Shown: one piece after another, positions 26,440 through 56,280 of the stretch | Numbering within the stretch: position 1 is the first letter of the stretch | Layout: each line of letters begins with the position of its first letter | Assembly (NCBI GenBank): GCA_027451365.1 | Contig: DAIDJN010000035.1 | Coordinates: 1-64,000 of the forward strand | DNA length: 64,000 nt | Source of the DNA: Phycisphaerales bacterium | GTDB taxonomy: Bacteria > Planctomycetota > Phycisphaerae > WQYP01 | Reading direction: 5' to 3' | Notes under the pieces: generated by a model | Database searches by the model: none | The model's input: the letters and a program-made list of their open reading frames with translations, nothing else | What the model was told of the DNA's origin: nothing | Translations under genes and position numbers: made by a program

Positions 26440-26715
26440 TCAGCCCCCCGCTATCGCAGGAACAATACTGACATCATCGCCATCTTTTACGGGAGTTTCC
26501 AAATTGGAAAGAAAGCGAATGTCTTCATCGTTGACATAAATATTGACAAACCGGTTCAGTTCACCGGGCTGCTTGAACAGGCGCTTATCCATGCCGGCGA
26601 ATTTTTCACACAACTGTCCCAGAAGTGCCGCCACGGTGGCCCCTTGAACTTCGGCCATATCTACGCCACCGGTCAACTGCCGCATGGGAGTGGGAATTCG
26701 AATTTTAACCGCCAT
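26440..26715 (-). CDS. MoaD/ThiS/CysO-like ubiquitin-fold sulfur carrier protein
   Basis: RFVNIYVNDEDIRFL; mature C-terminus PAIAGG. Confidence 0.92.
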   Translation of the reverse strand: MAVKIRIPTPMRQLTGGVDMAEVQGATVAALLGQLCEKFAGMDKRLFKQPGELNRFVNIYVNDEDIRFLSNLETPVKDGDDVSIVPAIAGG

Positions 26716-26797: not shown

Positions 26798-28087
26798 TCA
26801 ACGCCCGGCGCTGGCTGGAAGTTCCACGTGGCCTTCCATTAACGTGCGCGGCCCGGGCACAAGTCCCGCAATAAAGGCGTCAAACGCTTCGAGTTTCGCA
26901 GGAATTGACGCCGGCTGGCGAAGCTGATCCACGACTACTTCCACCGTTTTAAGTCCGTTGCCGGTAATGCACACACAAATACTTTCATCACGTGGGATGC
27001 GGCCGCGTTCGATCAATTTAATGGTCGCGGCCAGCGTCGTGCCACCGGCCGGTTCGGTCCAGATGCCTTCTGTGCAGGCGAGCAGCTTGATCGCATCCAC
27101 AATTTCCTGATCCGTGGCATCGGCACCCCAGCCGCCACTCTGTTTGACCGCCTGCACCACATAATATCCGTCCGCAGGGTTTCCAATGGCGATGCTTTTG
27201 GCGATGGTTTTGGGCTTCTGAGGTTTAATCAGATCTCGGCCAGCTTCAATGGCCTCAACCACCGGATTGCAGCCCGCGGCCTGCGCGGAATATATCTTCG
27301 GGTGGTTATCCTCCACCAGTCCCAGATCAATAAACTCGCGGTAGGCTTTGTAAATTTTCGGAAGAATGGTCCCGCCTGCGGTCGGGCAGACCGTATGACG
27401 GGGTAATTTCCATCCAAACTGCTCGGCAATTTCAAAGCCGAAGGTTTTGGCACCTTCGGTATAAAACGGGCGCAGATTCACATTCACAATCGCCCATTTG
27501 TACTTATCCGCAATTTCCGAACAGAGTCGGTTCACGTCGTCATAGTTGCCCTGAATACGCACCATCGTGGGATTGAAAATCAGGGATCCGAGCACTTTGC
27601 CCACTTCAAGGTCGTGGGGAATCATGACGAACGCCTTAAGACCCGCCATGGCGGCATGGGCGGCCACGCTATTGGCCAGATTGCCGGTGCTGGCACACCC
27701 GACGGTGTCGTATCCAAGTTCCGCCGCCTTGGTAATGGCCACGCTTACCACCCGTTCCTTGTAACTCCAGGTGGGGTAGTTGGCGGAATCGTCCTTTATA
27801 TACAGTTCTTTTACACCCAGAACTTTTTCCAGATTCCGGGCGCGACGAAACGGCGTAAAACCTGAATTGTGTCCTGTTCGCGGTTCGCCTTCGATCGGCA
27901 ATAGATCACGATAACGCCATAAATTGCGATCTCCGGCTTCAATGGATTGCCGGGTTACGCGGCCGCGCATGGCGGAATAATCGTACTGCACCTCCAGGGG
28001 GCCGAAGCAGACCTCGCATACATGCACACCTTTTTGCGGATAGTGCTGGCCGCATTCACGGCATTTCAAACCAAGGACGTAGGACAT
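26798..28087 (-). CDS. Threonine-synthase-like PLP enzyme with N-terminal Zn ribbon (candidate sulfur-carrier-dependent homocysteine synthase)
   Basis: CRECG..CEVC, SYKER (PLP Lys), ASTGNLA, NVNLRPFY.EG.KT, ITGNGLK; GGAGG RBS. Confidence 0.8.
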   Translation of the reverse strand: MSYVLGLKCRECGQHYPQKGVHVCEVCFGPLEVQYDYSAMRGRVTRQSIEAGDRNLWRYRDLLPIEGEPRTGHNSGFTPFRRARNLEKVLGVKELYIKDDSANYPTWSYKERVVSVAITKAAELGYDTVGCASTGNLANSVAAHAAMAGLKAFVMIPHDLEVGKVLGSLIFNPTMVRIQGNYDDVNRLCSEIADKYKWAIVNVNLRPFYTEGAKTFGFEIAEQFGWKLPRHTVCPTAGGTILPKIYKAYREFIDLGLVEDNHPKIYSAQAAGCNPVVEAIEAGRDLIKPQKPKTIAKSIAIGNPADGYYVVQAVKQSGGWGADATDQEIVDAIKLLACTEGIWTEPAGGTTLAATIKLIERGRIPRDESICVCITGNGLKTVEVVVDQLRQPASIPAKLEAFDAFIAGLVPGPRTLMEGHVELPASAGR

Positions 28088-43956: not shown

Positions 43957-45336
43957 CTATTGTTCTGGTGGGGACGGATTGCCTGCTGCCGCGGCGGCGC
44001 GGTTGGGCACTGCGATATGATGGAGCGGCAGCGCGACAATTGCGTCCAGATCCGCGAGCCGTTCCAGGGCATCGGTCTGCAGGTCCAGAATGATCGCCTG
44101 AATTTCCAGTTCCTTCTGTCTGGCCCGAATTTGCCCCTGAATTCCTGCAGTACCCTGCTGATAATCCGACCGGGCCAGGTATGCGATCAATTTAACCCGT
44201 GGAAGAACTTTTTTGGAAAAAATCCGCAGCCGTAATTGATCATCTTGCAATGCCAGCAGATCAATGGTCAATTCGGCGTCCAGATTTATTTTTCTGCCGC
44301 GTAACATGGCATTGGCGGCCCGCAAGTCGCTTCGTGCCTGGGCAATGGATGCGTTAATCGACTGATATTGAAACAGCGGCATAATCAGCGCGCCGGTTAA
44401 ATTCTGCACTGTACCATCCAGCGATGTGGAGAGCCCCAGATCAAAATTAGGAATGTACTGCATTTTTGCCCGCTGGATACTTAATTTTCCAGACTTTTGT
44501 AATTGCCGCAATTCCTGTAAATCCGGGTTGCGCCGCACCGCAAGTTGTAAAAGCTGGCTGTCATTTAACTGCAGCGCTTCAACCGCGGGCAACGCCGACG
44601 GCGGGTCAAGAGGGGCCGTGGCGGATCGACCGAGCACCGCATTAAGCCGCGCTAATAGCGACGGCGTTCTGGCCTTCAGTGCGGCAATGCGCACCCGCAG
44701 AGTGTCTATTGAATTTTCACCGGTCAGCCAATCTGAAGTCGATCCGCCGGTGCTTACGGCCACCTGGCGAAGCAATACAGCCGACCGGATGATCACCAAT
44801 TGGCGTTGGACCAAATTCAACAATTGAAAAGTCCGGACATATCTGTACCAGGCAGTCAGAACATCCCTGCGGAGGGCAAAACGCGCTGACATAAATTTCC
44901 ATCCGGCCGCCTTAGCCTGGTGGAAGGCCCTTTCAGCCTGTACGGACATTTTTGAAGGCCAGCGAATATCGGCGCTCCCCATGTTAGACACACCCAGCGT
45001 CGAATTTGCCAATGAAGCCGAGCCATTGGTCAGAAGTGTGCCCGCATTCAACATCACGGTGGTCGGTTCGGCACCCGCCTGCGGTATTTGATCAATAGCT
45101 GAACGCCAGTTCCAATAGGCCTGCTCCACAGCGGGGTTGTGGATCAGCGCATAGGCCACCAGTTGGTCCGGCGTGGCCTTGATTGGCAATGGCGGCAGGT
45201 GGCGCTGCGCATATGGTTTGGCAAACGGCTTTCCATCGCGCGCCGCCGCCAGACGCAAGCGCGATTCCCCCGCCGGATGCATGGTGCAACCCGTCAGACT
45301 TGCAAGAAGAAGTACAATGACACAGCGACTTTTCAT
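43957..45336 (-). CDS. TolC/CusC-family outer membrane efflux lipoprotein
   Basis: Lipobox LTGC; A...NP repeats; overlaps the cusA stop codon. Confidence 0.85.
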   Translation of the reverse strand: MKSRCVIVLLLASLTGCTMHPAGESRLRLAAARDGKPFAKPYAQRHLPPLPIKATPDQLVAYALIHNPAVEQAYWNWRSAIDQIPQAGAEPTTVMLNAGTLLTNGSASLANSTLGVSNMGSADIRWPSKMSVQAERAFHQAKAAGWKFMSARFALRRDVLTAWYRYVRTFQLLNLVQRQLVIIRSAVLLRQVAVSTGGSTSDWLTGENSIDTLRVRIAALKARTPSLLARLNAVLGRSATAPLDPPSALPAVEALQLNDSQLLQLAVRRNPDLQELRQLQKSGKLSIQRAKMQYIPNFDLGLSTSLDGTVQNLTGALIMPLFQYQSINASIAQARSDLRAANAMLRGRKINLDAELTIDLLALQDDQLRLRIFSKKVLPRVKLIAYLARSDYQQGTAGIQGQIRARQKELEIQAIILDLQTDALERLADLDAIVALPLHHIAVPNRAAAAAGNPSPPEQ

Positions 45337-48300
45337 GACTGGTCTCCTGTGGATTCGGTTGGCTTACGCCACATTTTCAGTGAAATCCGTGGTGCGCCGA
45401 ACAGCGTCCAGCCCATGACGATATAGTAAAGCGCCGGCAGCACCAGAAGTTCCAGAACAAATGCCGTTCCCAGGCCACCGATCATCGGGGCGGCCAGACG
45501 ACGCATGACCGTTGCCCCTGCGCCGTGTACCCAAAGCAATGGCGTCAGTCCGATCAGTGCAGCGCAGACCGTCATGGTCTGCGGACGAATGCGCCGCACC
45601 GCACCGGTCCGCACCGCCTCAAACAGATCCTTGCGGTCACGCAGAACGCCCATATATCTGGCCTCGTTAAAGCTTACATCCAGGTACAGCAGCAGCACCA
45701 GTCCCATTTCCGCACATAGACCGGCCAAGGCGATAATCCCGACCCAGACCGCCACCGAAAGCTGGTAGTGCAGAAAATACAGAGCCCATATCGCACCCAC
45801 CAGACCAAATGGCACGGAAAGAAGCACACCCAGCACGCGCCCGACGCTTCCAGTCGCGACGAACAACAGAATAAAAATTATCAGAAGCACCAATGGTATG
45901 ACGAGTTTCAGGCGGTCATTGGATTCCTGAATCTGTTTGTAAAGACCGATCCACTGGTAAGTGTAGCCAACGGGAAGCACAACGTGACTGCGGATCGCCG
46001 CATTGGCACGGTGTACATAACCAATGGTGTCATTTACAGTTGATGTAATGTTGATGTAATTAAGTGTTAAGGCGTCCTGGGAGTCTATTTCCGGCGGACC
46101 CGAACTGTAGTGGATATTGGCTAACATTCCCAGATTGATAAAAGCACCACTGGGTGTGGCGATGGGCAAGGCTTTCAGGGCAGAGACGCTCCCGCGCAGA
46201 TTCCGGAAATACCGCACAGTAACAGGCAGCCGCTTCAATCCAAGCACCATGGTGCTCACCGGCTCTCCCCCGATGGCCATGGTGATCATTTTCTGCACCG
46301 CGCCCTGGGTTAAGCCATATCGCGCCGCACGCAGTCGATTGATATGAATGCTCAGGTAATACCCCCCCAGCGGCTGGTCCGCAATCGCACTTCCAGTTCC
46401 GCGAACACCCTGCAACGCGTGGGCAATCTGATTGGAAACCTTGCCCAGCACTCCCAGATTTTCGCCAAACACCCGGATACCCAGCAGTGTTTTGCTGCCC
46501 GTATTCACCATGTTCACCCGATTGGCGATGGGCATCGTCCAATAGACGGCAAAACCAGGAATTTTCAGGGCCTCATCCATTCCCGGATGATGTTTCCCGT
46601 CCGCACCCGTCCAGCCGTGCTTTACCTGCATCAGCGTCAGGTGCGCTGTGGAAGGCCAGAACGTATGCGCAAAGGGCCACTGTATCCAGTGCGGCCAGGA
46701 ATCATAAAATCGCCTCACCGGCGCGCTGGGCCATTGTGCCCGGCGTTTAAGCCGCACAATGGTATCTACCATATTCATCGGTGCCGAATCGGTGGCGGTA
46801 TCCGCGCGGCCAATCTGGCCGAAAACAGTCTTCACTTCGGGAAAGCTCTTGATAATTTTATCGCTTTGCCCCAGTACATACCGTGCCGCCCCAACACTGA
46901 TACCGGGGTAGGTCGTCGGCATGTATTCCAAATCCCCTTCGTAAAGCGGGGGCGTAAATTCCGTTCCCAGCCGGGACAGTGGCCAGAAAATTGAAAGGCA
47001 AAGCCCCGCCATCAGGACAAGAATTGGCCAGCGCAAAAATATGGCGATACGGAAAACAGGATCAAAGCACTTTTGCAGCAGGCGGGCAACAAAATTGTGG
47101 TCTTCATGAATGATCTCCTGCGGTATGACCAGCAATATCGCCAGAGCCATCCAGCCGATACACAGCCACCCGCGGTAGTGCCCCAGTTCACTGCCCAGAC
47201 CTATCACATGATAAAGGCCTATTGCCGGCAGAATCACAATAGCCAGGGCAACTGGCCATTGAATCCATCGTGGCCAGCTTTCCGGAAACAATCGCGGACT
47301 GATGAAATAAATCATCAGCACCGGCACAATGGTAATTGACAGCAGCGCCGCGGAGGCAATCGCAAAGGTCTTGGTAAGCGCCAGCGGCGAAAACATTTTG
47401 CCACTTTCGCCCGGCAATACAAATATCGGCAGAAAACTTACCGTAATAATCAGCAGGCTGAAAAACAGACTCGGCCCGACCTCCGCCGCCGCGGATAGAA
47501 TCAGGTCGGCTCGCGGTACTGGCGGATATCCGTTTGTGACGCGCTGTTCATCGCGATTTATATGCTGGTGTGCGTTTTCCACCATCACAATCGCGCTGTC
47601 CACCACCACTCCAATCGCAATGGCAATCCCGCTTAAACTCATAATATTGGCGCTGATCCCCAACCAGTACAAAATAGCCAGGCTTATAATCATGCTGGAT
47701 GGAATAACCGTTATCGCCACCAGACTGCTGCGCCCATGAAGCAGAAACACCAGGCATATCACCGCGACAACAATCATTTCCTCCATCAACGTATCGGACA
47801 GAGTATGAATGGAACGGCTGATCAGATTCGTGCGATCGTAGCCGGTTTTAAACATGATTCCCGGCGGCAAACTGCTGGTCAGGACCGCGATTTTCCTTTT
47901 GACCTGCTGAATCACTCTGTAGGTATCCGCGCCCGAACGGACCACCACAATACCTCCCACCGCCTCCCCCAGACCATTCCAATCCAGAACGCCCAGCCGC
48001 TGCGCGCCGGCTATCTGTATCGTGGCGACGGTACCCAGCAAAATCGGCGTGCCATTCTTCGCCTGGCCAACTGGCACATCTCTTAGCTGCCCGACATTTT
48101 TCAAATACCCGCGGCTGCGCACAATGTATTGAAATTCGCCACGATCCACGACCGCGCCACCCACATCATTATTGGACTGTTGAATGGCGAGCGTTACCTG
48201 ATTGATGCCGAGGTGATACGCCCGCAACTTGTTGGGATCCAGCACCACCTGGTATTGCTCTTCAAAACCACCCAGCCCGGCTACTTCGGAAACACCCGGC

Positions 48301-48986
48301 ACCGCTTCAAGCTGATATCGTACGAACCAGTCCTGAAGCGACCGCAATTGGCCCAGATTGATATCGCATGATACCAGAGGCTGCCCCGACAGCGGTGATT
48401 TTCCCGGATGGTCAAAAGCCCGCACCAGTTGCAGTTGCCTGCGGTCTTTCACCGGCGCCTGTGCTCGATGTGCGTACCAATGATTGGTTTGACCGTTATG
48501 CCAAATCCCATTGGGATGATGCCGGGCATACCAGCCCGGATAGAGCACATACTGAAAAGCCCAGCCCGCCCCGGTCGCGTCTGGACCAAGTTGCGGATTA
48601 ACGCCCACGGGCAGAAGGGTTTTGGCATAACTGAGGTATTCGAGTACGCGACTTCGCGCCCAGTAAAGATTCGTTCCATTTTTGAATACCACCGTCACCA
48701 GCGAATATTCAAACATGCTTGAACCGCGTACAGCTTTTACATCTGGCGCGTGAATCAACTGCGTTTCCAGCGGATAGGTTACTTGCTTTTCCACGACTCC
48801 GGGCGATTGACCGGGGTAGTTGGTCAGCACCAGCACTTGCACGTCAGATAAATCGGGAACCGCATCCAGCTTGCTGTGAAAAGCGGCCCAGCCCGCAACG
48901 GCCACCACCATCAGTGATAACAGCACCACCAGCACGCGGTTCTTTACAGACAATTCAATAATTTTACGGATCATGTTGTGGTCCAT
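45333..48986 (-). CDS. cusA: CusA/SilA-type heavy-metal RND pump with several insertions (start 48986 or 48974)
   Basis: DAVPDLSDVQV, YWARSRVLEYL, LGPDATG, AIGVVVDSAIVMVEN; Met triad at YMPT, PMNMVDT, RVNM. Confidence 0.9.
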   Translation of the reverse strand: MDHNMIRKIIELSVKNRVLVVLLSLMVVAVAGWAAFHSKLDAVPDLSDVQVLVLTNYPGQSPGVVEKQVTYPLETQLIHAPDVKAVRGSSMFEYSLVTVVFKNGTNLYWARSRVLEYLSYAKTLLPVGVNPQLGPDATGAGWAFQYVLYPGWYARHHPNGIWHNGQTNHWYAHRAQAPVKDRRQLQLVRAFDHPGKSPLSGQPLVSCDINLGQLRSLQDWFVRYQLEAVPGVSEVAGLGGFEEQYQVVLDPNKLRAYHLGINQVTLAIQQSNNDVGGAVVDRGEFQYIVRSRGYLKNVGQLRDVPVGQAKNGTPILLGTVATIQIAGAQRLGVLDWNGLGEAVGGIVVVRSGADTYRVIQQVKRKIAVLTSSLPPGIMFKTGYDRTNLISRSIHTLSDTLMEEMIVVAVICLVFLLHGRSSLVAITVIPSSMIISLAILYWLGISANIMSLSGIAIAIGVVVDSAIVMVENAHQHINRDEQRVTNGYPPVPRADLILSAAAEVGPSLFFSLLIITVSFLPIFVLPGESGKMFSPLALTKTFAIASAALLSITIVPVLMIYFISPRLFPESWPRWIQWPVALAIVILPAIGLYHVIGLGSELGHYRGWLCIGWMALAILLVIPQEIIHEDHNFVARLLQKCFDPVFRIAIFLRWPILVLMAGLCLSIFWPLSRLGTEFTPPLYEGDLEYMPTTYPGISVGAARYVLGQSDKIIKSFPEVKTVFGQIGRADTATDSAPMNMVDTIVRLKRRAQWPSAPVRRFYDSWPHWIQWPFAHTFWPSTAHLTLMQVKHGWTGADGKHHPGMDEALKIPGFAVYWTMPIANRVNMVNTGSKTLLGIRVFGENLGVLGKVSNQIAHALQGVRGTGSAIADQPLGGYYLSIHINRLRAARYGLTQGAVQKMITMAIGGEPVSTMVLGLKRLPVTVRYFRNLRGSVSALKALPIATPSGAFINLGMLANIHYSSGPPEIDSQDALTLNYINITSTVNDTIGYVHRANAAIRSHVVLPVGYTYQWIGLYKQIQESNDRLKLVIPLVLLIIFILLFVATGSVGRVLGVLLSVPFGLVGAIWALYFLHYQLSVAVWVGIIALAGLCAEMGLVLLLYLDVSFNEARYMGVLRDRKDLFEAVRTGAVRRIRPQTMTVCAALIGLTPLLWVHGAGATVMRRLAAPMIGGLGTAFVLELLVLPALYYIVMGWTLFGAPRISLKMWRKPTESTGDQS

Positions 48987-49037
48987 TTTCGGGGAACAAT
49001 CGGGTTTGAAATCAGAATCACCCGCGCCAATGCGCAA

Positions 49038-50408
49038 CTATTTGGATATATTCGGGGCCAGCGTAGTGCCGACGACCGGCTTCGCCGCCGTGGCTTTCGG
49101 CAAAAAACGCGCCTTAAGCTGGCTATATTGAGACTCCACATCAATCATGAATTGACCGCTGGTCACCACTTTTTGCCCCGGCCCGAGTCCGGATATTACC
49201 TGCACCAGACCATGCGCCCCCACCAGTCCGGTCGTGACCTTTACCGGATCAAAATGCCCGTGCGACGTTTCAATAAACACCAGTTCGCCGGTACCAGTGT
49301 TTATTACAGCGCGGCGCGGCACCAGAATGGTGTGCTTCAACGGACTGGTAAGAACATCCACCATGGCAAACATTCCCGGGCGAAGCATCCCGTCGGAATT
49401 GTCCAGAGCCACACGAACTGTGATTGTGTGATTTTCCGGATTTTCAAGCGGGTCTATGAAAATAATGCGGCCGGTAAATTGTTTGCCGGGAAACGCCGCG
49501 ATACTGGCCACTACGCGCTGTTTCATCGCAATCCAGGGAAGCTGGTTCTCATACACATAGGTGTTAAGCCAAAGTGTGGAAAGATCATCCACGCGCATCA
49601 CGGTCATGCCGGCCGTAATCGGCGATTTCTGCTGTACTTTTATCTCCGCAAGAATGCCGTTGGCGGGACTGGTAAAAGTGACATACACTTCCGGTTTCAG
49701 GGTTTTAAGGACCCTTTGAATGGTAACCTGATTCACCCCCAGAAATTTCAGCCGCATGGACACAGACCGAACCAGTTCTCGGGCTTGGCCAATCGCCTGC
49801 CTGTCCGCACCTTTTCCAGCCATGGAAACCATCTTTTGAGCCGCCACGAGTTCCTGCTCCGCGGCCACAATCTTCGGACTGTACAGCGTGAACAGCGGCT
49901 GCCCGCGGCGGATGATTTGCCCATTGGTGGTCGCAAACAGTTTGCCAATCCAGCCATCCGCGCGCACTGTGATCGCCACGCGTTTTGGTGCGGCTACCTG
50001 CAACGTGCCGACAGTCCGTACCCGCCTGGTCAATGCCCCCAGGGTGACCAAACCGGTTTGAATGCCCATGTTCTGTACCATGGCGGGATCCACATGAACC
50101 TGTCCCGGATTATTGCTTTCGCTTGATGGCGCATAAACCGGTTTGAGCGGCATACCCATGGAACTGATGCCCGGTTTGGGCGAAATAGACGATGCTCCGA
50201 CCATGGAGTCCCACCAATACAGTATCTTTCGTTTGGGGACGGCCTTTTTCGTGGCAGATAATTCGGCCGTTTTGTTCGGTTTGCTCTGTCCGGCAACACC
50301 ACCGCCGACGGCATGGCCGAGGGCAGATTGCAGAACAATCGCCAGCATAAAGCCAAATATCGCGCAAATAATTCCGACAAGTCCGGTCGTGATCAATCGA
50401 AGTCGCAT
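49038..50408 (-). CDS. cusB: CusB-type membrane fusion protein with N-terminal Met-rich metal-binding domain
   Basis: ILYWWDSM...KPG.S.MGM.LKPVY; LYSP, LRPGMFA, GQKVVTSGQFMID.ES. Confidence 0.88.
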   Translation of the reverse strand: MRLRLITTGLVGIICAIFGFMLAIVLQSALGHAVGGGVAGQSKPNKTAELSATKKAVPKRKILYWWDSMVGASSISPKPGISSMGMPLKPVYAPSSESNNPGQVHVDPAMVQNMGIQTGLVTLGALTRRVRTVGTLQVAAPKRVAITVRADGWIGKLFATTNGQIIRRGQPLFTLYSPKIVAAEQELVAAQKMVSMAGKGADRQAIGQARELVRSVSMRLKFLGVNQVTIQRVLKTLKPEVYVTFTSPANGILAEIKVQQKSPITAGMTVMRVDDLSTLWLNTYVYENQLPWIAMKQRVVASIAAFPGKQFTGRIIFIDPLENPENHTITVRVALDNSDGMLRPGMFAMVDVLTSPLKHTILVPRRAVINTGTGELVFIETSHGHFDPVKVTTGLVGAHGLVQVISGLGPGQKVVTSGQFMIDVESQYSQLKARFLPKATAAKPVVGTTLAPNISK

Positions 50409-50533
50409 TAAAATACCCCAAATATAGTTGCCAAGGCCCGGCGATCCGGGTCTGGACGGACGCCGTGGGCAATAAATGCCTGTGATGGCGAAATCGCCGT
50501 CACACACATATAAGATCTATATTTGTAGATATT

Positions 50534-50977
50534 TTAGATTATTAATACGATGTACCGGCTCTGCGGTGTGTGCCAACGGAAATAAGGCAGCCGACGAACC
50601 TCCGCCGACCGGATTACCGCATGATGAAAACAAAATGCCGCAGCAGCCAGTCGCGGCATAACAGGATTCAAGACAATCGATACGGAGGGGCAAAATGCCA
50701 ACGGAAATCCGCCTGAACCGGTCAGTCGGCATTTGGAGCACGGCCGCGACCCGCCACCGGTCTGCGGAAGGCCCGTGCACGGATTGCCATTCATTCGCCG
50801 CATACAGGCGTTGCCGACAGGGCCACACCGGCAGCATGGCATCGTGGCCATACACCGGGCTTGCCTCATCGGCCTGCGATGAATATCACGGCCTCCCGCG
50901 ATCCGGCATTGCGCCGGCCGCGAGACCGGCGCAAATAGCACACTCACGCAGACCAGAATGACAAAAAAAAGTTTCAA
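50534..50977 (-). CDS. Cys-rich exported/leader protein upstream of the cus genes
   Basis: Signal-like N-terminus; PCCRC and CSKC; hydrophobic C-terminus YIVLII; co-oriented with cusB. Confidence 0.55.
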   Translation of the reverse strand: MKLFFVILVCVSVLFAPVSRPAQCRIAGGRDIHRRPMRQARCMATMPCCRCGPVGNACMRRMNGNPCTGLPQTGGGSRPCSKCRLTGSGGFPLAFCPSVSIVLNPVMPRLAAAAFCFHHAVIRSAEVRRLPYFRWHTPQSRYIVLII

Positions 50978-51042
50978 CCGTCAAATACCCCGGGTTAAAA
51001 TTGCCTACCGGTACTGCAAACCCGACGGGCAACCGTGAAGCC

Positions 51043-51459
51043 TTATTGATGAAGGTTATCGCTCAGATGAATCTTCATCCACATATCGCCCATGCGCCAC
51101 CAGATTTTGGTCGGGTAAATCACTTTGTCCTTCATATCCTCTTTTCCGACCACCTTAATCTGCACACCGACATATTTTGCCAGCGGCTTAGGATTGGTCA
51201 GCAGCGTAAACGCATGACCGCCGATCAGGATGCCCGCGGGTATGCCACTGGCCAGGCACTTTTGGCCGCAGGTTTTGCCATGCGCCCGCCCCGTCATGCC
51301 CATAGTGCTGTAGCACGCCATATCCAGCAGTTCCCCTTTCGCAGTGATCTTCTTTATTACCGGCTTAGCCACCGAGGCTGCATGGAGGGGTAACGCAACG
51401 GCGGACAATAAAGCCAATCCAATTGCCGAACCGCAAGACATCTTCAAAAACTGCTTCAT
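51043..51459 (-). CDS. Small periplasmic protein with GE..D.AC...H..C...C...G.P.GIL motif, Met-rich
   Basis: Signal peptide ending LHA-A; GGAG RBS; clustered Cys/His/Met. Confidence 0.75.
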   Translation of the reverse strand: MKQFLKMSCGSAIGLALLSAVALPLHAASVAKPVIKKITAKGELLDMACYSTMGMTGRAHGKTCGQKCLASGIPAGILIGGHAFTLLTNPKPLAKYVGVQIKVVGKEDMKDKVIYPTKIWWRMGDMWMKIHLSDNLHQ

Positions 51460-51674
51460 ATAAAAACTCCTGAAAATGTGTGAAACAACTTCCGTCTGCA
51501 ATTGAGATAATTCTAATCAATAGTGGCATCTCGGGCCACCACTTAAAAAAATGCCTTAAGCAGGCCCGCGTCGACGGATTGTCGACACCACTGGCCGACA
51601 ACCTGACTACAACCGGTTGCCGCCAAGTCGCGGACATGGCGCATAACGACATGCACATTCAATCAGTTGCGTAT

Positions 51675-52025
51675 TCACGGGCGACCATGGATCGCCCAAT
51701 CCGGGTGGTAATGTCCTTTGGAATCAGTAAACAGCGACGGATTAGATGACACAAGATGAGCGCGCCCCGTCAAGGCATACGGCGAGATCTGAACCATTGG
51801 AAGCCCAAGTCGCTTATTGCTTGTCGACAAAGTCGCAAAGTACCAATCCGGGTGGTAATGCCCCTTGGAATCAGTAAATGCCACGGGATTGAATGTTGCT
51901 TTGGCCGCGACGTTCCCGTTTTGACTCTTGGCAAATGTCGCTGCCTGCGCCATGATGCCGCCGGCGGTCACACAGCCGACTAATACCCCCAACACCAGCC
52001 CATTCTTCAGGTTTAACGTAAACAT
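51675..52025 (-). CDS. Secreted small protein with two FTDSKGHYHPDW repeats
   Basis: RBS GAGGTG; signal peptide ending AQA-A; internal repeat; shares its motif with 53609..53848. Confidence 0.85.
   Translation of the reverse strand: MFTLNLKNGLVLGVLVGCVTAGGIMAQAATFAKSQNGNVAAKATFNPVAFTDSKGHYHPDWYFATLSTSNKRLGLPMVQISPYALTGRAHLVSSNPSLFTDSKGHYHPDWAIHGRP
51696..51878 (-). repeat. Two 36-nt direct repeats (51696-51731, 51843-51878) encoding FTDSKGHYHPDW
   Basis: The copies differ at 2 positions, both synonymous. Confidence 0.92.
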
Positions 52026-52101
52026 GATACCACCTCGCTATATTAAGCGTCCGCCCGCAATCTGAACCGACACCCGGTTTCGCGACTGCGGGAACAATAA
52101 A

Positions 52102-52132
52102 TAAGACGCCCTACACGGGGCCAAAAGTTCCA
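52102..52132 (-). promoter_or_regulatory. ECF-sigma-type promoter P1 (repeat-peptide gene, possibly the whole cus operon)
   Basis: TGGAACTT-N16-CGTCTTA. Confidence 0.75.
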
Positions 52133-52346
52133 CTGATTGTCAGAATTTGGTTTCCTTGAGGTGCAACCGAATTGAAACAAAATATGCGATGCCGACAGTT
52201 ATGCACGCAAGCCGCTTCGCCCGATTTATCCGCAAACTATCCGAAACTGTCTGTTAATAAGGCAATAATGTTGGACGACGGCATATTTAGATGCAAATTG
52301 CCCACAGTTTTATAAATTGGCACAGATTTTGTAGTGCTATTTTGGC

Positions 52347-53021
52347 ATGAACAGAAATTGGATGGCGCGAGCCTGCTCAATATTGCTTTTGCTGGTTTTG
52401 GGTGGTTGCACGTCTGGAATGGACGCTGGCGACCAGTCCGCCGTCGAAAGCCAATGGGTTTTGCAGCGCGGTGGTGTTATTCGCGGTTCGCAGCAGTTGC
52501 GCGCACAACTGTTATGCGATCGCTTATGCCGCGGCTGGATACATAATTCAATTCATGTCCGGATCGTCAATAGCAGTTTGCTTGGTGCGTGGACCTGGCC
52601 AGACAGGGATATTTATATTACCCGGGGGCTGGCCTTACATCTGACCGATGATGAACTTGCCGCGGCAATTGCCCATGAAATGGGGCATCTTATTAACAGC
52701 AACGCCGTCCAATGTCCGTATGCACTGGGTCGCAACGGTGAAAAGTTGGGAATTGAAGCCGGTGCCGATCTTACGGGATCTCGCGTTTTGGCCGCTCATG
52801 GCATTTCGCCGCAATGCTTGATCCGGGTTCTGCAGTTGTTATACCGGTGCAGTTCCAATGTATCGCTTCGGAATTCACTGCAATTGCGGATTCAAGCACT
52901 CTTATCCGCAATCTCTTCCGGAAGCATTGATAAACGTCTGCGCAATGTCTCCCGGGCACGCGATACCCGCGATCTTACCGTTCCCACTTGCACAGCCAAT
53001 ACCTCTGCAGCAATTTCGTAG
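52347..53021 (+). CDS. M48-family zinc metallopeptidase, lipoprotein
   Basis: Lipobox LGGC; IYITRGL...DDELAAAIAHEMGH; E..AD. Confidence 0.85.
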   Translation: MNRNWMARACSILLLLVLGGCTSGMDAGDQSAVESQWVLQRGGVIRGSQQLRAQLLCDRLCRGWIHNSIHVRIVNSSLLGAWTWPDRDIYITRGLALHLTDDELAAAIAHEMGHLINSNAVQCPYALGRNGEKLGIEAGADLTGSRVLAAHGISPQCLIRVLQLLYRCSSNVSLRNSLQLRIQALLSAISSGSIDKRLRNVSRARDTRDLTVPTCTANTSAAIS

Positions 53022-53473
53022 CTTAGTTGTACAACATCCACAAGCAGGATGGTCCACCGCATATCTTCCGGCAGCGATTTTAGCGCCGCAATCACAGTTT
53101 GATCCGAAAAAGCCTCCATCATCGCATCGGCATTACGAATATCCAGCGTTTCCGCGACAGCATCCGTATCTGCGGGATCATTGCCCGATTCACATAATTG
53201 ATCCAGGCTCGCATTGTGATGAATGTGCGCACCATCAGACCGCAGGCGGTCAACCCAGGTATGCCGCAGTATCGTCAGCAACCAGGCTCGCAGATTCCCA
53301 CCCTTTTCATCAAACTGATGCAAGCCACGCCATGCTTTCACAAGTGCTTCTTGTGCAATTTCCTCGGCTTTTCCGGCGTTATGCGTCATCAACATAGCCG
53401 CACGAAGCACCGTTGATCGTTCTGGCCAAACTAATTCGTAAAAGCGCTTTGAATTGCTTTCCGGCGTTTTCAA
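52892..53473 (-). CDS. ECF RNA polymerase sigma factor
   Basis: Region 2 AEEIAQEALVKAW..LRAWLLTILR; region 4 LSYE.AAEVL....GTVRSRVSRAR; TTG start after GGGAG. Confidence 0.92.
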   Translation of the reverse strand: MKTPESNSKRFYELVWPERSTVLRAAMLMTHNAGKAEEIAQEALVKAWRGLHQFDEKGGNLRAWLLTILRHTWVDRLRSDGAHIHHNASLDQLCESGNDPADTDAVAETLDIRNADAMMEAFSDQTVIAALKSLPEDMRWTILLVDVVQLSYEIAAEVLAVQVGTVRSRVSRARETLRRRLSMLPEEIADKSA

Positions 53474-53506
53474 TTCCCGCTCCCAACAGTAATAAACAAT
53501 TGGCAA

Positions 53507-53537
53507 TGGAACCGTTTAGCCGGGCGACTTCGTCTGA
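53507..53537 (+). promoter_or_regulatory. ECF-sigma-type promoter P2 (small lipoprotein gene)
   Basis: TGGAACCG-N16-CGTCTGA. Confidence 0.75.
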
Positions 53538-53608
53538 TTAAACGTGGCTGAGTTATCGGCAACGTGCCGGATACCTGTGGCCGAAGGAACCGCAAAAGGA
53601 GAAAAATC

Positions 53609-53848
53609 ATGTCTCGCACACGTCTTGTTATAATCAAGGTGCTGCCAACCTTCCTCTTAGGGGCAAGTGTCGTGGCGCTGGTTGGTGGATGCACTTCCAC
53701 ATCCAGCAACCCGGGTGCCTATGCCCTCACCGGCACAAACAGCCCGCCGACATTCATTCCGCCTGCGTCAACAATTGACGGCAAAGGCCATTACCATCCT
53801 GACTGGTATTTTCATGGCCGCCAGTTACCCTCTGGACAGGGTCAGTAA
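53609..53848 (+). CDS. Small lipoprotein with YALTG and DGKGHYHPDWYFHGR motifs
   Basis: AAGGAG RBS; lipobox VGGC; motif shared with 51675..52025. Confidence 0.85.
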   Translation: MSRTRLVIIKVLPTFLLGASVVALVGGCTSTSSNPGAYALTGTNSPPTFIPPASTIDGKGHYHPDWYFHGRQLPSGQGQ

Positions 53849-53920
53849 AATTTCATTCTCCGTTGCGAAAGTGTCAACATAATTTTGCATCGGAGCCTTA
53901 TAACGTTCTTTCCTCAATCC

Positions 53921-53977
53921 GCCGCCCGGTTTAACTTTCTTATTACCGGTTGTTAACCGGGCGGCTGTTGCCTTTTT
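53921..53977 (+). terminator. Probable terminator after the small lipoprotein gene
   Basis: GCCGCCCGGTTTAAC...GTTAACCGGGCGGC stem with a T-rich tail. Confidence 0.55.
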
Positions 53978-54253
53978 AAGCGACCGCGCCACGCAGTTTA
54001 CACTCCTCTTTCATCGATAACCAAAAGCCCCTCTCTGCGTTAACCGACCACATAACGCGACGGCGATGAGAATTTAAGCACATTGCCCCGATTATTTCCG
54101 ATGGCAAGTCAGCGCTCGCGACGATTTCCTGCAGGACGGTCCAGATTATCCGTCGCCGCGATAAAACAGCAATAGACCGACAGGTAAATGCGTGGCTGGC
54201 GGTCAAATAAGTCTTATTTAACCAAGTCAAATACTCGGACTCTAAAATCAAAT

Positions 54254-54910
54254 TCACCGTCCACTCGAATGCATCTGATTAGCAATTAACATAAGCTTAC
54301 TTACCCGCTGAGGCCCCATCACACATATCCAATGCCGACTGCCGGATTGAATCACCATATTCAACTGACCGGTCTTTTGCACGATAAAGGACTTACCGTC
54401 TAATCGTCGAAGCTGCCCCTGTGGATATTCAAGTTTTCCGGCAGGCACAACCACCACCCCCACTGTCTGATTGCCGCGCTTTACCAGCATGCACGCCACA
54501 CGATGATGATGAAGAGTTTGCATGCAACAATTGGCCATATTCCCTGCCTGAGGCGAACACATGCGTTGAAGATTATTTTTCTGCGCGTCGGTCATTCCGC
54601 CTGACATGGGTGAAGCCAGCATATGATTATAAATTTGTGATAGATCGTTAACCGACGCCCGGCTGCTATGGGGCGCCATAAGGGGGATTAGAAATGCGGC
54701 CAGCATAACTGCGGCCGCAACCAGGCCAGATACGGCGATCCGCCAGGTGCCAACGCTTCTTTTGGGTGCCAAAATTTGCTCCCGTAGTGCACAATCCAGA
54801 CCGGTTGTGTCCACCGGCATGGTTGCTAGACGGGCCAAGCGGCGGGCGACGGCCTGATTGTCCCCGTCTTGCTGGGAATTGCATTCAGAATTGCGAATCT
54901 GTTCAGCCAT
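54254..54910 (-). CDS. Putative single-TM anti-sigma factor with Cys/His/Met-rich periplasmic domain
   Basis: Short helical cytoplasmic N-terminus, one TM segment, then MCSP..MANCCMQTLHHH..CM; near the ECF sigma gene. Confidence 0.65.
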   Translation of the reverse strand: MAEQIRNSECNSQQDGDNQAVARRLARLATMPVDTTGLDCALREQILAPKRSVGTWRIAVSGLVAAAVMLAAFLIPLMAPHSSRASVNDLSQIYNHMLASPMSGGMTDAQKNNLQRMCSPQAGNMANCCMQTLHHHRVACMLVKRGNQTVGVVVVPAGKLEYPQGQLRRLDGKSFIVQKTGQLNMVIQSGSRHWICVMGPQRVSKLMLIANQMHSSGR

Positions 54911-54990
54911 AAGATGCCCCGGAAGCGTTTAGTCAACAACAAAATTCCAAATCACGGCACGCACCGTAATTGCGCAGCTTTACCAAAATA

Positions 54991-55021
54991 TATAACGATT
55001 AACAGGCCTCGGAAAGTTCCA
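54991..55021 (-). promoter_or_regulatory. ECF-sigma-type promoter P3 (anti-sigma gene)
   Basis: TGGAACTT-N16-CGTTATA. Confidence 0.7.
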
Positions 55022-55383
55022 ACGTGCCAATCGCCATCCGCATCCCCATCCGCAGTTCATTTTCGCCGCTAATTAAAAATTCCGCGGCATGCCGAATCCA
55101 GCAAAATAACGGCCTGGCCTTGCGGAAAAGAATTAACGCATAGAAGGAAAGCACTTCGAAATTAGAAGAGTTCTATGGTCGTGGACTTATTTATCCTCGG
55201 CTTGGGAACACGCGTCAGTCGCATTTGGCGATCTGCAAAACCGGCCGAATTGGCCAATTTTTGATCCCCCAATAAGTTCGTGCATCAGACCGCGCTTCCC
55301 ACCGCATTGCAGGGTTTGCGCATTACGCATATAACCACGGCGCGTAAACTGAAAATGGTCAGCATTGGAATAAAGGAACGAAT

Positions 55384-56280
55384 GTGCCACCCCTATCCGA
55401 CGCTCTGATGAATTCATCCATACCGAATCTGGCTGTGCGCCGCGGGAAGGTTCGCGATGTCTACGACCTTGGCGATACGTTGCTGATTGTGGCAACCGAT
55501 CGCATTAGTGCTTTTGACGTCATAATGCCCACGCCCATACCGGGTAAAGGTCGTATTCTTACCCAACTAAGCAATTACTGGTTCAAGAGGCTGTCCAGCA
55601 TAGTCACGCATCATCTGGTGGCCACGCGGATGGAAGATTTCCCCGCGTCGCTTCAGCCGTTTGCGGCACAACTTGCCGGCCGATCTATTTTGGCGCGGAA
55701 AACCAGCGTTATCCCAGTGGAATGCGTGGTGCGAGGTTATATAGCCGGCGGCGGGTGGAATGAATATCAGCGCACTGGCGCAGTCTGCGGAATTGACCTT
55801 CCAACCGGATTAGAGCGGTGTCAAAAACTTGCGCAGCCCATTTTTACACCCACAACCAAAGCCGCGGCGGGTCATGATGAAAGCATATCGTTCGTGGGCG
55901 CTGTACAGATTGCCGGCCTGCAAACCATGGAATTTGTGCGCGACATGTCGATCCGGCTTTATGAAGAAGCGGCTAAAATTGCGCTGGCCAGAGGTATTAT
56001 TATTGCGGACACAAAATTTGAATGGGGCATTCCATTCGGTGAATCGCGTCCCATTCTGATAGATGAAGCCCTCACACCAGATTCCTCCCGGTTCTGGCCA
56101 GCGGAAAATTATCGACCGGGAACCGAACCCGTCAGTTTCGACAAACAATATGTACGCAATTATCTTGAAACTCTTGCGTGGAATAAACAGCCGCCTGGGC
56201 CAATCCTTCCCGCAGATGTCGTCGCCCAAACTCTGCAAAAATATCAAGACGCGTACGATAAGCTCACGGGCGAGCGGTAG
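55384..56280 (+). CDS. purC: SAICAR synthetase
   Basis: GKVRDVY, ATDRISAFD, ECVVRGY, IADTKFE, DE.LTPDSSRFW. Confidence 0.96.
   Translation: MPPLSDALMNSSIPNLAVRRGKVRDVYDLGDTLLIVATDRISAFDVIMPTPIPGKGRILTQLSNYWFKRLSSIVTHHLVATRMEDFPASLQPFAAQLAGRSILARKTSVIPVECVVRGYIAGGGWNEYQRTGAVCGIDLPTGLERCQKLAQPIFTPTTKAAAGHDESISFVGAVQIAGLQTMEFVRDMSIRLYEEAAKIALARGIIIADTKFEWGIPFGESRPILIDEALTPDSSRFWPAENYRPGTEPVSFDKQYVRNYLETLAWNKQPPGPILPADVVAQTLQKYQDAYDKLTGER

Follow-up and report, generated by a model that had tools for sequence, protein, structure and literature searches.

What are two small exported proteins, alike in a short linear motif and a histidine-rich core, doing next to a protease-like gene and a copper-efflux operon? 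The question arises from a 64,000-nucleotide (nt) stretch of DNA of a Phycisphaerales bacterium (Planctomycetota; assembly GCA_027451365.1, contig DAIDJN010000035.1, positions 1 to 64,000), the whole of which we call the window, and the two proteins are the products of its genes A and B. An original prediction, made from the letters of the DNA, had offered two answers: a metal site built from H-Y-H and a distal His or, alternatively, precursors that are cut into short peptides. Judged by the sequences of relatives, the second answer is a better-supported lead than a family-wide metal site, because the peptide genes travel with a gene for an M48-like lipoprotein protease. In the reading that we favor, and that we regard as quite possible if short of probable, the products of genes A and B would be dedicated substrates of the adjacent protease, precursors from which His/Trp cores are released. 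What we have observed directly are the genes, their motifs, a promoter consensus, the linkage of the genes, and the missing His-Pro (H-P) plug of the protease.

The original prediction gave both open reading frames (ORFs) with the right coordinates and motifs. In a six-frame scan of the 4.06-Mb genome, GHYHPDW occurs three times, every time inside genes A and B, and YALTG five times, two of them in these genes. Within gene A, a repeat finder reports a direct repeat of 53 nt (identity 81%, spacing 147), along with inverted matches to gene B. The shared module, said to end in HGR, survives in part: all three cores are present, and the distal HG is found in two of them, core 1 of gene A ending in WYFAT. 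So does the claim that the two copies in gene A differ only at synonymous sites, which is right for the 12-codon FTDSKGHYHPDW core (2 synonymous changes, 0 replacements) and wrong for the flanks, where residues differ. Stronger support for selection on the peptide comes from the L041 ortholog, which differs from gene A by 28 synonymous and 1 replacement codon changes in 51 motif codons; by this count, gene A is under purifying selection. A first homolog search gave 12 proteins: four full-length gene A orthologs (54-70% identity), one single-core form, and seven gene B-type lipoproteins. The core is invariant or nearly so in all 12, while signal and spacers drift, and the histidines are invariant inside the gene A ortholog set and inside the gene B ortholog set. 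(Several matches of one homolog search were discarded as signal-peptide noise.) The single-core form, P0007, has 67 amino acids (aa) and a collapsed 147-nt repeat unit; it is recorded on seven contigs and arose either by recombination in nature or by collapse during assembly. The AlphaFold2 (AF2) model of gene A, with a predicted local distance difference test (pLDDT) score of 55 and a predicted template modeling (pTM) score of 0.25, makes each core a small, locally confident hairpin and leaves the motif disordered; because of these scores, we made no fold search with it.

How much of this belongs to the family as a whole? The wider family consists of lipoproteins and Sec-exported proteins of about 57-135 aa, a few of them longer, and from the homologs seen we aligned a selection of 34. 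The xLxG motif is kept in 33 of the 34. The DxKG[HR] core is found in 28 and is altogether absent from the other 6; the first His is present in 26, HxH in 15, and HxH with a distal His in just 8. With xLxG in 33 rows and HxH plus distal His in 8, the alignment points to PYALTG, not the histidines, as the constant element of the family and to the His-rich core as clade-specific cargo. The motif is placed between the anchor and this C-terminal cargo, with spacers of variable length, and the cargo can be poor in His (DDKGRYRQDL in genome G351). The family-wide conservation of metal ligands expected of a copper chaperone or sponge is not seen, and the family-wide site of H-Y-H plus distal His has to be given up on the same counts. 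Copper binding in this His-rich clade is plausible all the same, because its genes carry the promoter of the cus regulon described below, and binding by this clade's cores would be compatible with every reading discussed here. That the proteins belong to no named family, as originally proposed, is borne out: genes A and B have no Pfam match above cut-off and no NCBIfam match (one of five homologs gave a below-cut-off match, to a lipoprotein N-terminus), a PDB sequence search gave a best E of 0.59, matches of the family in the ESM Atlas were sub-threshold (below 0.9), and literature searches, motif strings included, turned up no publication on the family. Nor did these searches bring up the plug-less M48 subfamily, or its linkage to the peptide, in print.

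With what, then, does the peptide travel? A motif-bearing exported ORF lies within 1.5 kb at 15 of 29 M48-like loci, compared with 6 of 29 anti-sigma loci and 14 of 300 random windows. Among 401 genomes of the window's class, the Phycisphaerae, 30 match the M48-like profile. The peptide profile matched 20, from which noise was dropped (G029, G087, G176, G272, and the G251 match in a long ORF) and G286, an unpublished genome, was also excluded, and all 14 genomes with a match judged true carry the M48-like gene. Once G286 and four distant relatives are set aside, 25 genomes have a close M48-like homolog, and 22 of these have an intact peptide gene; the four distant M48 relatives have neither the loop motif described below nor an adjacent peptide. 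Adjacent pairs come in divergent, convergent, and both tandem orientations, and a second set of pairs, with His-poor tails, is found in urease and urea-uptake clusters. In metagenome loci (n = 20, one chance match dropped; 8 of them shorter than 2.1 kb), a sigma gene is present in 12 and the protease in 9. Taken from gene neighborhoods, the M48-like gene appears as a tighter partner of the peptide than the sigma system is, and the two are probably coupled functionally in some way. The parts expected of a precursor system, namely recognition motif, core, and a dedicated peptidase gene nearby, are all at hand; the conserved tailoring enzymes needed for a ribosomally synthesized and posttranslationally modified peptide are not, none being common across the loci (L011 has a methyltransferase between the pair, and other loci have different neighbors). 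Two motif-pattern matches were rejected as chance, one opposite an Ffh-like gene (L009) and one within a 1216-aa ORF (L049). The M48-like gene lies within urease, nickel-insertion, or urea-uptake clusters of five genomes (L195, L197, L196, L191, L199), usually with a PYALTG-type peptide gene; in the urease-type cluster of G138 (L191), no peptide gene was seen nearby.

The protease itself is peculiar. According to passages of Bryant et al. (10.1101/2020.07.30.230011), H-P-x(4)-R is conserved in all of PF01435, and its His is an autoinhibitory zinc ligand. The window's protein has the zinc ligands of an M48 enzyme (HExxH and a downstream Glu) and lacks that plug, and on its sequence we file it as M48-like rather than canonical M48. 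Its predicted fold agrees with this: the AF2 model has a mean pLDDT of 77, and the best Foldseek matches are 3C37 (E = 6e-6) and BepA (E = 2e-4), with template modeling (TM) scores of about 0.45-0.52. In an alignment of 30 sequences, left when one wrong-frame row (L094:4522-5058) was dropped from 31, HExxH, ExxAD, and the Arg are kept and H-P is found in none; a further set of 12 proteins, some overlapping the 30, has no H-P either. The same genome's three canonical M48s have H-P-x4-R and loops of 59-81 aa. In the M48-like set, this loop is 19-25 aa long and carries [AS]-L-x-G, and every one of the 30 has L or I at the motif position. When the proteases are scored with a matrix that draws on nothing but the peptide motif, the loop holds the top-scoring site in 19 of the 30 (shuffles: mean 3.9, maximum 11), which makes the resemblance of loop and peptide motif suggestive. 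The wrong-frame row was still included in two results: in a phylum sample, the protease profile matched 3 of 401 genomes, all of the window's class, and a complex prediction for the protease domain, mature gene B, and zinc scored 0.02, the mark being 0.32, and so speaks for neither side.

How might the parts work together? We imagine that periplasmic Cu(I) or Ag(I) would be sensed by the Cys cluster of an anti-sigma factor, freeing its sigma factor, which would make gene A (soluble) and gene B (lipid-anchored) alongside cusBAC. The protease would recognize [AS]LxG, its own [AS]LxG loop standing in for the lost plug as a pseudo-substrate over the cleft, and would cleave at YA-LTG or close to it, releasing the core from the membrane anchor (gene B) or parting two cores (gene A). 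The freed cores would bind copper in this His-rich clade, and the cargo would differ in others. The fullest version, a new two-gene Phycisphaerae envelope module in which a plug-less M48 with a pseudo-substrate loop that copies the motif of its substrate frees exchangeable cargo from lipid anchors, is a conjecture that we put forward with some doubt.

Several observations weigh against this reading. Cleavage and protease activity are predicted from sequence and linkage. The adjacency pattern was composed after the peptides had been seen, and related genomes are not independent. Of the 25 genomes with a close M48-like gene, 3 have no intact peptide gene (G326 has an interrupted one, and G009 and G216 have none in the 10-14 kb around the M48-like gene), and in G012, G138, and G162, a peptide gene turned up elsewhere but not near the protease. 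No motif precedes core 1 of gene A. The likeness of loop and motif is weak: the program hhalign selects the same loop-motif match, yet with E = 0.097, and two of six control families (CusA and Lgt) hold a column that scores equal to or higher than the loop motif. H-P is also missing from distant M48 relatives and from one M56-like protein, so the plug can be lost without a partner being needed. Finally, we found no ECF promoter upstream of the window's M48-like gene.

That last point concerns regulation, where copper enters the story. The locus reads anti-sigma, gene B, extracytoplasmic function (ECF) sigma, M48-like gene, gene A, two exported genes of no known family, cusB, cusA, and an outer-membrane factor. 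ECF-type promoters precede gene A, gene B, and the anti-sigma gene (Table 1), and the one at gene A likely drives both that gene and the cus operon downstream; in G001, a genome of the same genus, gene A is gone and its promoter still stands ahead of the operon. The pattern [GT]GAAC[CT]-N16/17-CGT[CT], derived from the very upstream regions in which it was counted (a set that holds close kin and some mis-set starts), occurs in 22 of 27 homolog upstream regions (shuffles: mean 0.09, maximum 2); 11 of the 27 also have a twin element, which faces the sigma gene. It has no genome-wide enrichment (147 found, 132 expected), so only its position is informative; a sigma-70 scan gave 4 sites vs. 5.9 expected. 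No such promoter was found upstream of the urease-cluster peptide genes. The same element precedes cusB or cusC at many relatives' loci, and because their ECF-type promoter is common to the anti-sigma gene and the relatives' cusBA, genes A and B are likely members of a copper-export regulon, although optional ones (6 of 29 anti-sigma loci). The ECF sigma encoded between them likely transcribes both, along with the copper-export genes. Induction by copper, or that copper or silver is the signal at all, we infer from Cus, CopA, and CsoR neighbors and from the conserved periplasmic cysteines. The efflux genes match TIGR00914 (resistance-nodulation-division, RND, type) above cut-off, and the best match of the adaptor is CusB, below its cut-off. 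The anti-sigma family occurs in 79 of the 401 genomes, mostly as a single copy (the count includes G286, on which no claim depends); at 40 loci, fetched from 39 of the 79 genomes, an ECF gene is always adjacent, and Cus genes lie within 11 kb at 31. The ECF group may already be classified in the supplement of PMC7826278.

Table 1. Features of the locus in window coordinates
Feature	Position	Strand	Remarks
cusB, cusA, and outer-membrane factor	43957..50507	-	Heavy-metal RND efflux; cusB 49038-50507, cusA 45333-49037, outer-membrane factor 43957-45336
Cys-rich exported ORF	50534..50977	-	No known family; homolog in G001
Exported Met/Cys/His-rich protein	51043..51501	-	No known family; likely start 51459; next downstream of gene A
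Gene A	51675..52025	-	116 aa; Sec-type exported; predicted signal end near AQA-A; layout core-PYALTG-core
Gene A core 2, FTDSKGHYHPDWAIHGRP	51678..51731	-	Genome scan, ortholog alignment
Gene A PYALTG linear motif	51765..51782	-	Proposed protease recognition or cut site; disordered in AF2 prediction, pLDDT <50
Gene A core 1, FTDSKGHYHPDW	51843..51878	-	Repeat analysis, genome scan; predicted micro-hairpin, block pLDDT 80 (AF2)
ECF-type promoter GGAACT-N17-CGTC	52105..52131	-	106 nt upstream of gene A
M48-like lipoprotein	52347..53021	+	224 aa; HEMGH, E137-x-x-AD, and R181 kept; no H-P plug
PYALG in the 22-aa loop of M48-like protein	about 52716-52733	+	
ECF sigma factor	52892..53506	-	True start uncertain; profile searches
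ECF-type promoter GGAACC-N17-CGTC	53508..53534	+	101 nt upstream of gene B
Gene B	53609..53848	+	79-aa lipoprotein, VGG-C28
Gene B AYALTG motif	53717-53734	+	
Gene B core, DGKGHYHPDWYFHGR	53777-53821	+	
Putative single-pass anti-sigma factor	54254..54910	-	Periplasmic CC...VAC cluster
ECF-type promoter GGAACT-N17-CGTT	54994..55020	-	110 nt upstream of anti-sigma gene

What else could the peptides be doing? If the protease has lost its plug, the peptide may be an inhibitor that supplies one in trans, PYALTG docking in the cleft and a core His (the HP of HYHPDW, or KGH) filling the fourth zinc site; in this way, sigma-driven peptide synthesis would adjust the protease, and the peptide might be displaced by copper. 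The protease lacks H-P yet keeps the plug's Arg, H-P is found in many cores, the plug His of BepA is an autoinhibitory zinc ligand in the passages of 10.1101/2020.07.30.230011 cited above, and the gene linkage serves this reading as well as the favored one. We nevertheless think it unlikely: histidines are dispensable in relatives (the G351 core; core-less peptides beside urease-linked proteases), the spacers between motif and core vary widely, and plug-less relatives exist with no peptide next to them. Might the proteins instead be a stand-alone copper or silver sponge, one soluble and one tethered, whose H-x-H/Trp cores bind periplasmic metal while the protease is incidental or recycles them? 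His-x-His binds Cu(I), both genes have the cus-regulon promoter, exported proteins that are YHS-like, Cys-rich, or Met-rich take the same first-gene slot elsewhere, the histidines do not vary within either ortholog set, and the RNA runs described below stem from mine drainage. Against all this, the scarcity of HxH plus distal His noted above, a family-wide motif devoid of metal ligands, and a protease linkage in four orientations and in urease clusters, which a sponge leaves unexplained, hold its chances down to about those of the inhibitor.

It is rather improbable that motif and loop both bind a third envelope component, be it a beta-barrel porin, an assembly machine, or the efflux channel, while the protease serves assembly or quality control in the manner of BepA and peptide and protease do not act on each other. 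No porin gene was recognized at the window's locus, the enzyme (its whole length taken up by 224 aa) lacks the TPR domain of BepA, and no candidate partner is conserved in both copper and urease contexts, even though the best fold matches are 3C37 and BepA, porin-like genes lie in several loci, and several have an extra lgt behind the peptide gene. Least probable, in our judgment, is that the peptide is a partner or sensor for the anti-sigma factor, in the manner of CnrX or RseB, with the M48-like enzyme as site-1 protease. The sigma/anti-sigma pair and the peptide gene often run divergently and have twin promoters, but obligate co-occurrence is not what we find: a peptide within 1.5 kb is the exception at anti-sigma loci, the M48-like gene is in just 18 of the 79 anti-sigma genomes, and the peptide-protease pair also occurs in G030, G162, and G251, where no anti-sigma was found.

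Are these genes transcribed? In RNA-library contigs of four mine-drainage metatranscriptome runs from one study, which carry no strand or expression-level information, parts of gene A are present in 4 of 4 runs and parts of gene B in 1 of 4; a 20-kb control stretch is largely uncovered, save for short conserved matches. The M48-like gene and most of cusBA have no RNA-contig cover, and we did not use this as evidence. The inferred 5' leaders of the two peptide genes, at 53540-53608 (+) and 52026-52099 (-), are about 60-80 nt long and unlike in sequence, and each folds as a bulged hairpin ahead of the ribosome site, with homologous leaders in L010, L018, L041, and L043. Folding z-scores are mostly weak (4 of 18 below -2.5), and an Rfam search of 50400-55400, leaders included, gave no match.

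Some observations on the neighbors may be useful to others. The sigma and M48-like genes converge and share 130 nt at their 3' ends (52892-53021), as they do in G001 and L041. The anti-sigma family has a conserved periplasmic CC or CY...[VMT][AS]C cluster and no Pfam or NCBIfam match; it is usually beside cusBA and defines a GAAC-N17-CGTT regulon (L091-L130). The Met/Cys/His-rich protein next to gene A is a candidate copper chaperone, and its homologs in L123 and L126 lie behind the same ECF promoter and ahead of cusB. In six loci (L044:456-1325, L092, L094, L100, L145, L186), an extra lgt comes immediately after the peptide gene or its promoter, often followed by a heavy-metal-binding lipoprotein or CopA; a passage of PMC8689077 places a second lgt in a copper-resistance element. 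Cys-rich lipoproteins with CxxC repeats occur in copper loci L098, L109, L110, L111, L118-L120, and L202, several directly behind the same promoter. A promoter-like GGAACT-N16-CGTT at 26799-26825 (-), 110 nt upstream of a MoaD/ThiS-like gene (26440-26715), may be chance.

Why should anyone care? A plug-less M48 subfamily with a linked candidate substrate or inhibitor is a small, soluble test system for M48 regulation and substrate choice. An ECF copper regulon, with its promoter, anti-sigma, and targets, is now defined for a largely unstudied class, in which it reaches 79 of 401 genomes, and short synthetic peptides are directly suited to copper-binding tests. If the module is real, it would carry His/Trp micro-hairpins that bind copper where it sits in copper regulons, and other tails where it sits in urease clusters.

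How new, finally, is any of this? The ECF/anti-sigma/RND logic is already known from CnrYXH-cnrCBA (ECF291), in which, according to part of PMC7826278, an ECF sigma and a membrane anti-sigma drive their own promoter and an RND metal pump. The window's anti-sigma looks unrelated, with its Cys cluster and lack of a Pfam match, and the peptide is not obligate. The metal ligands of CusF include His and Trp, and like CusF-type copper chaperones, our proteins are small, exported, found at the head of a cus operon, and endowed with His and Trp; unlike them, they match no profile, have no predicted folded domain and no Met ligands, and do not conserve His across the family. Among the M48s, BepA/YfgC, LoiP, and the Geobacter protein 3C37 share HExxH, the third-ligand Glu, the conserved Arg, and the fold with the window's enzyme, which resembles LoiP further in being a lipoprotein (the L010 homolog matches NF052399 below cut-off). 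It differs in having no H-P plug, no TPR domain, a lid region of 19-25 aa where BepA has H145-S195, and a linkage to a small exported peptide gene. Ste24 and ZMPSTE24, which process a-factor and prelamin A, are M48-type proteases as well. In passages of 10.1101/2020.05.13.093849, the lipid-anchored a-factor precursor is a substrate of Ste24, and the site cut by ZMPSTE24 is SY-LL; there and here, a lipid-anchored precursor is, or would be, cut upstream of its mature part, and SY-LL resembles Y-ALTG. Those enzymes are eukaryotic integral-membrane proteins whose substrate has a C-terminal farnesyl anchor, whereas the window's enzyme is a bacterial lipoprotein, the anchor is at the N-terminus, and the cleavage is predicted. 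If our favored reading is true, the pair would be a bacterial counterpart of Ste24/a-factor processing, making ribosomal metal-binding or signaling peptides on demand.

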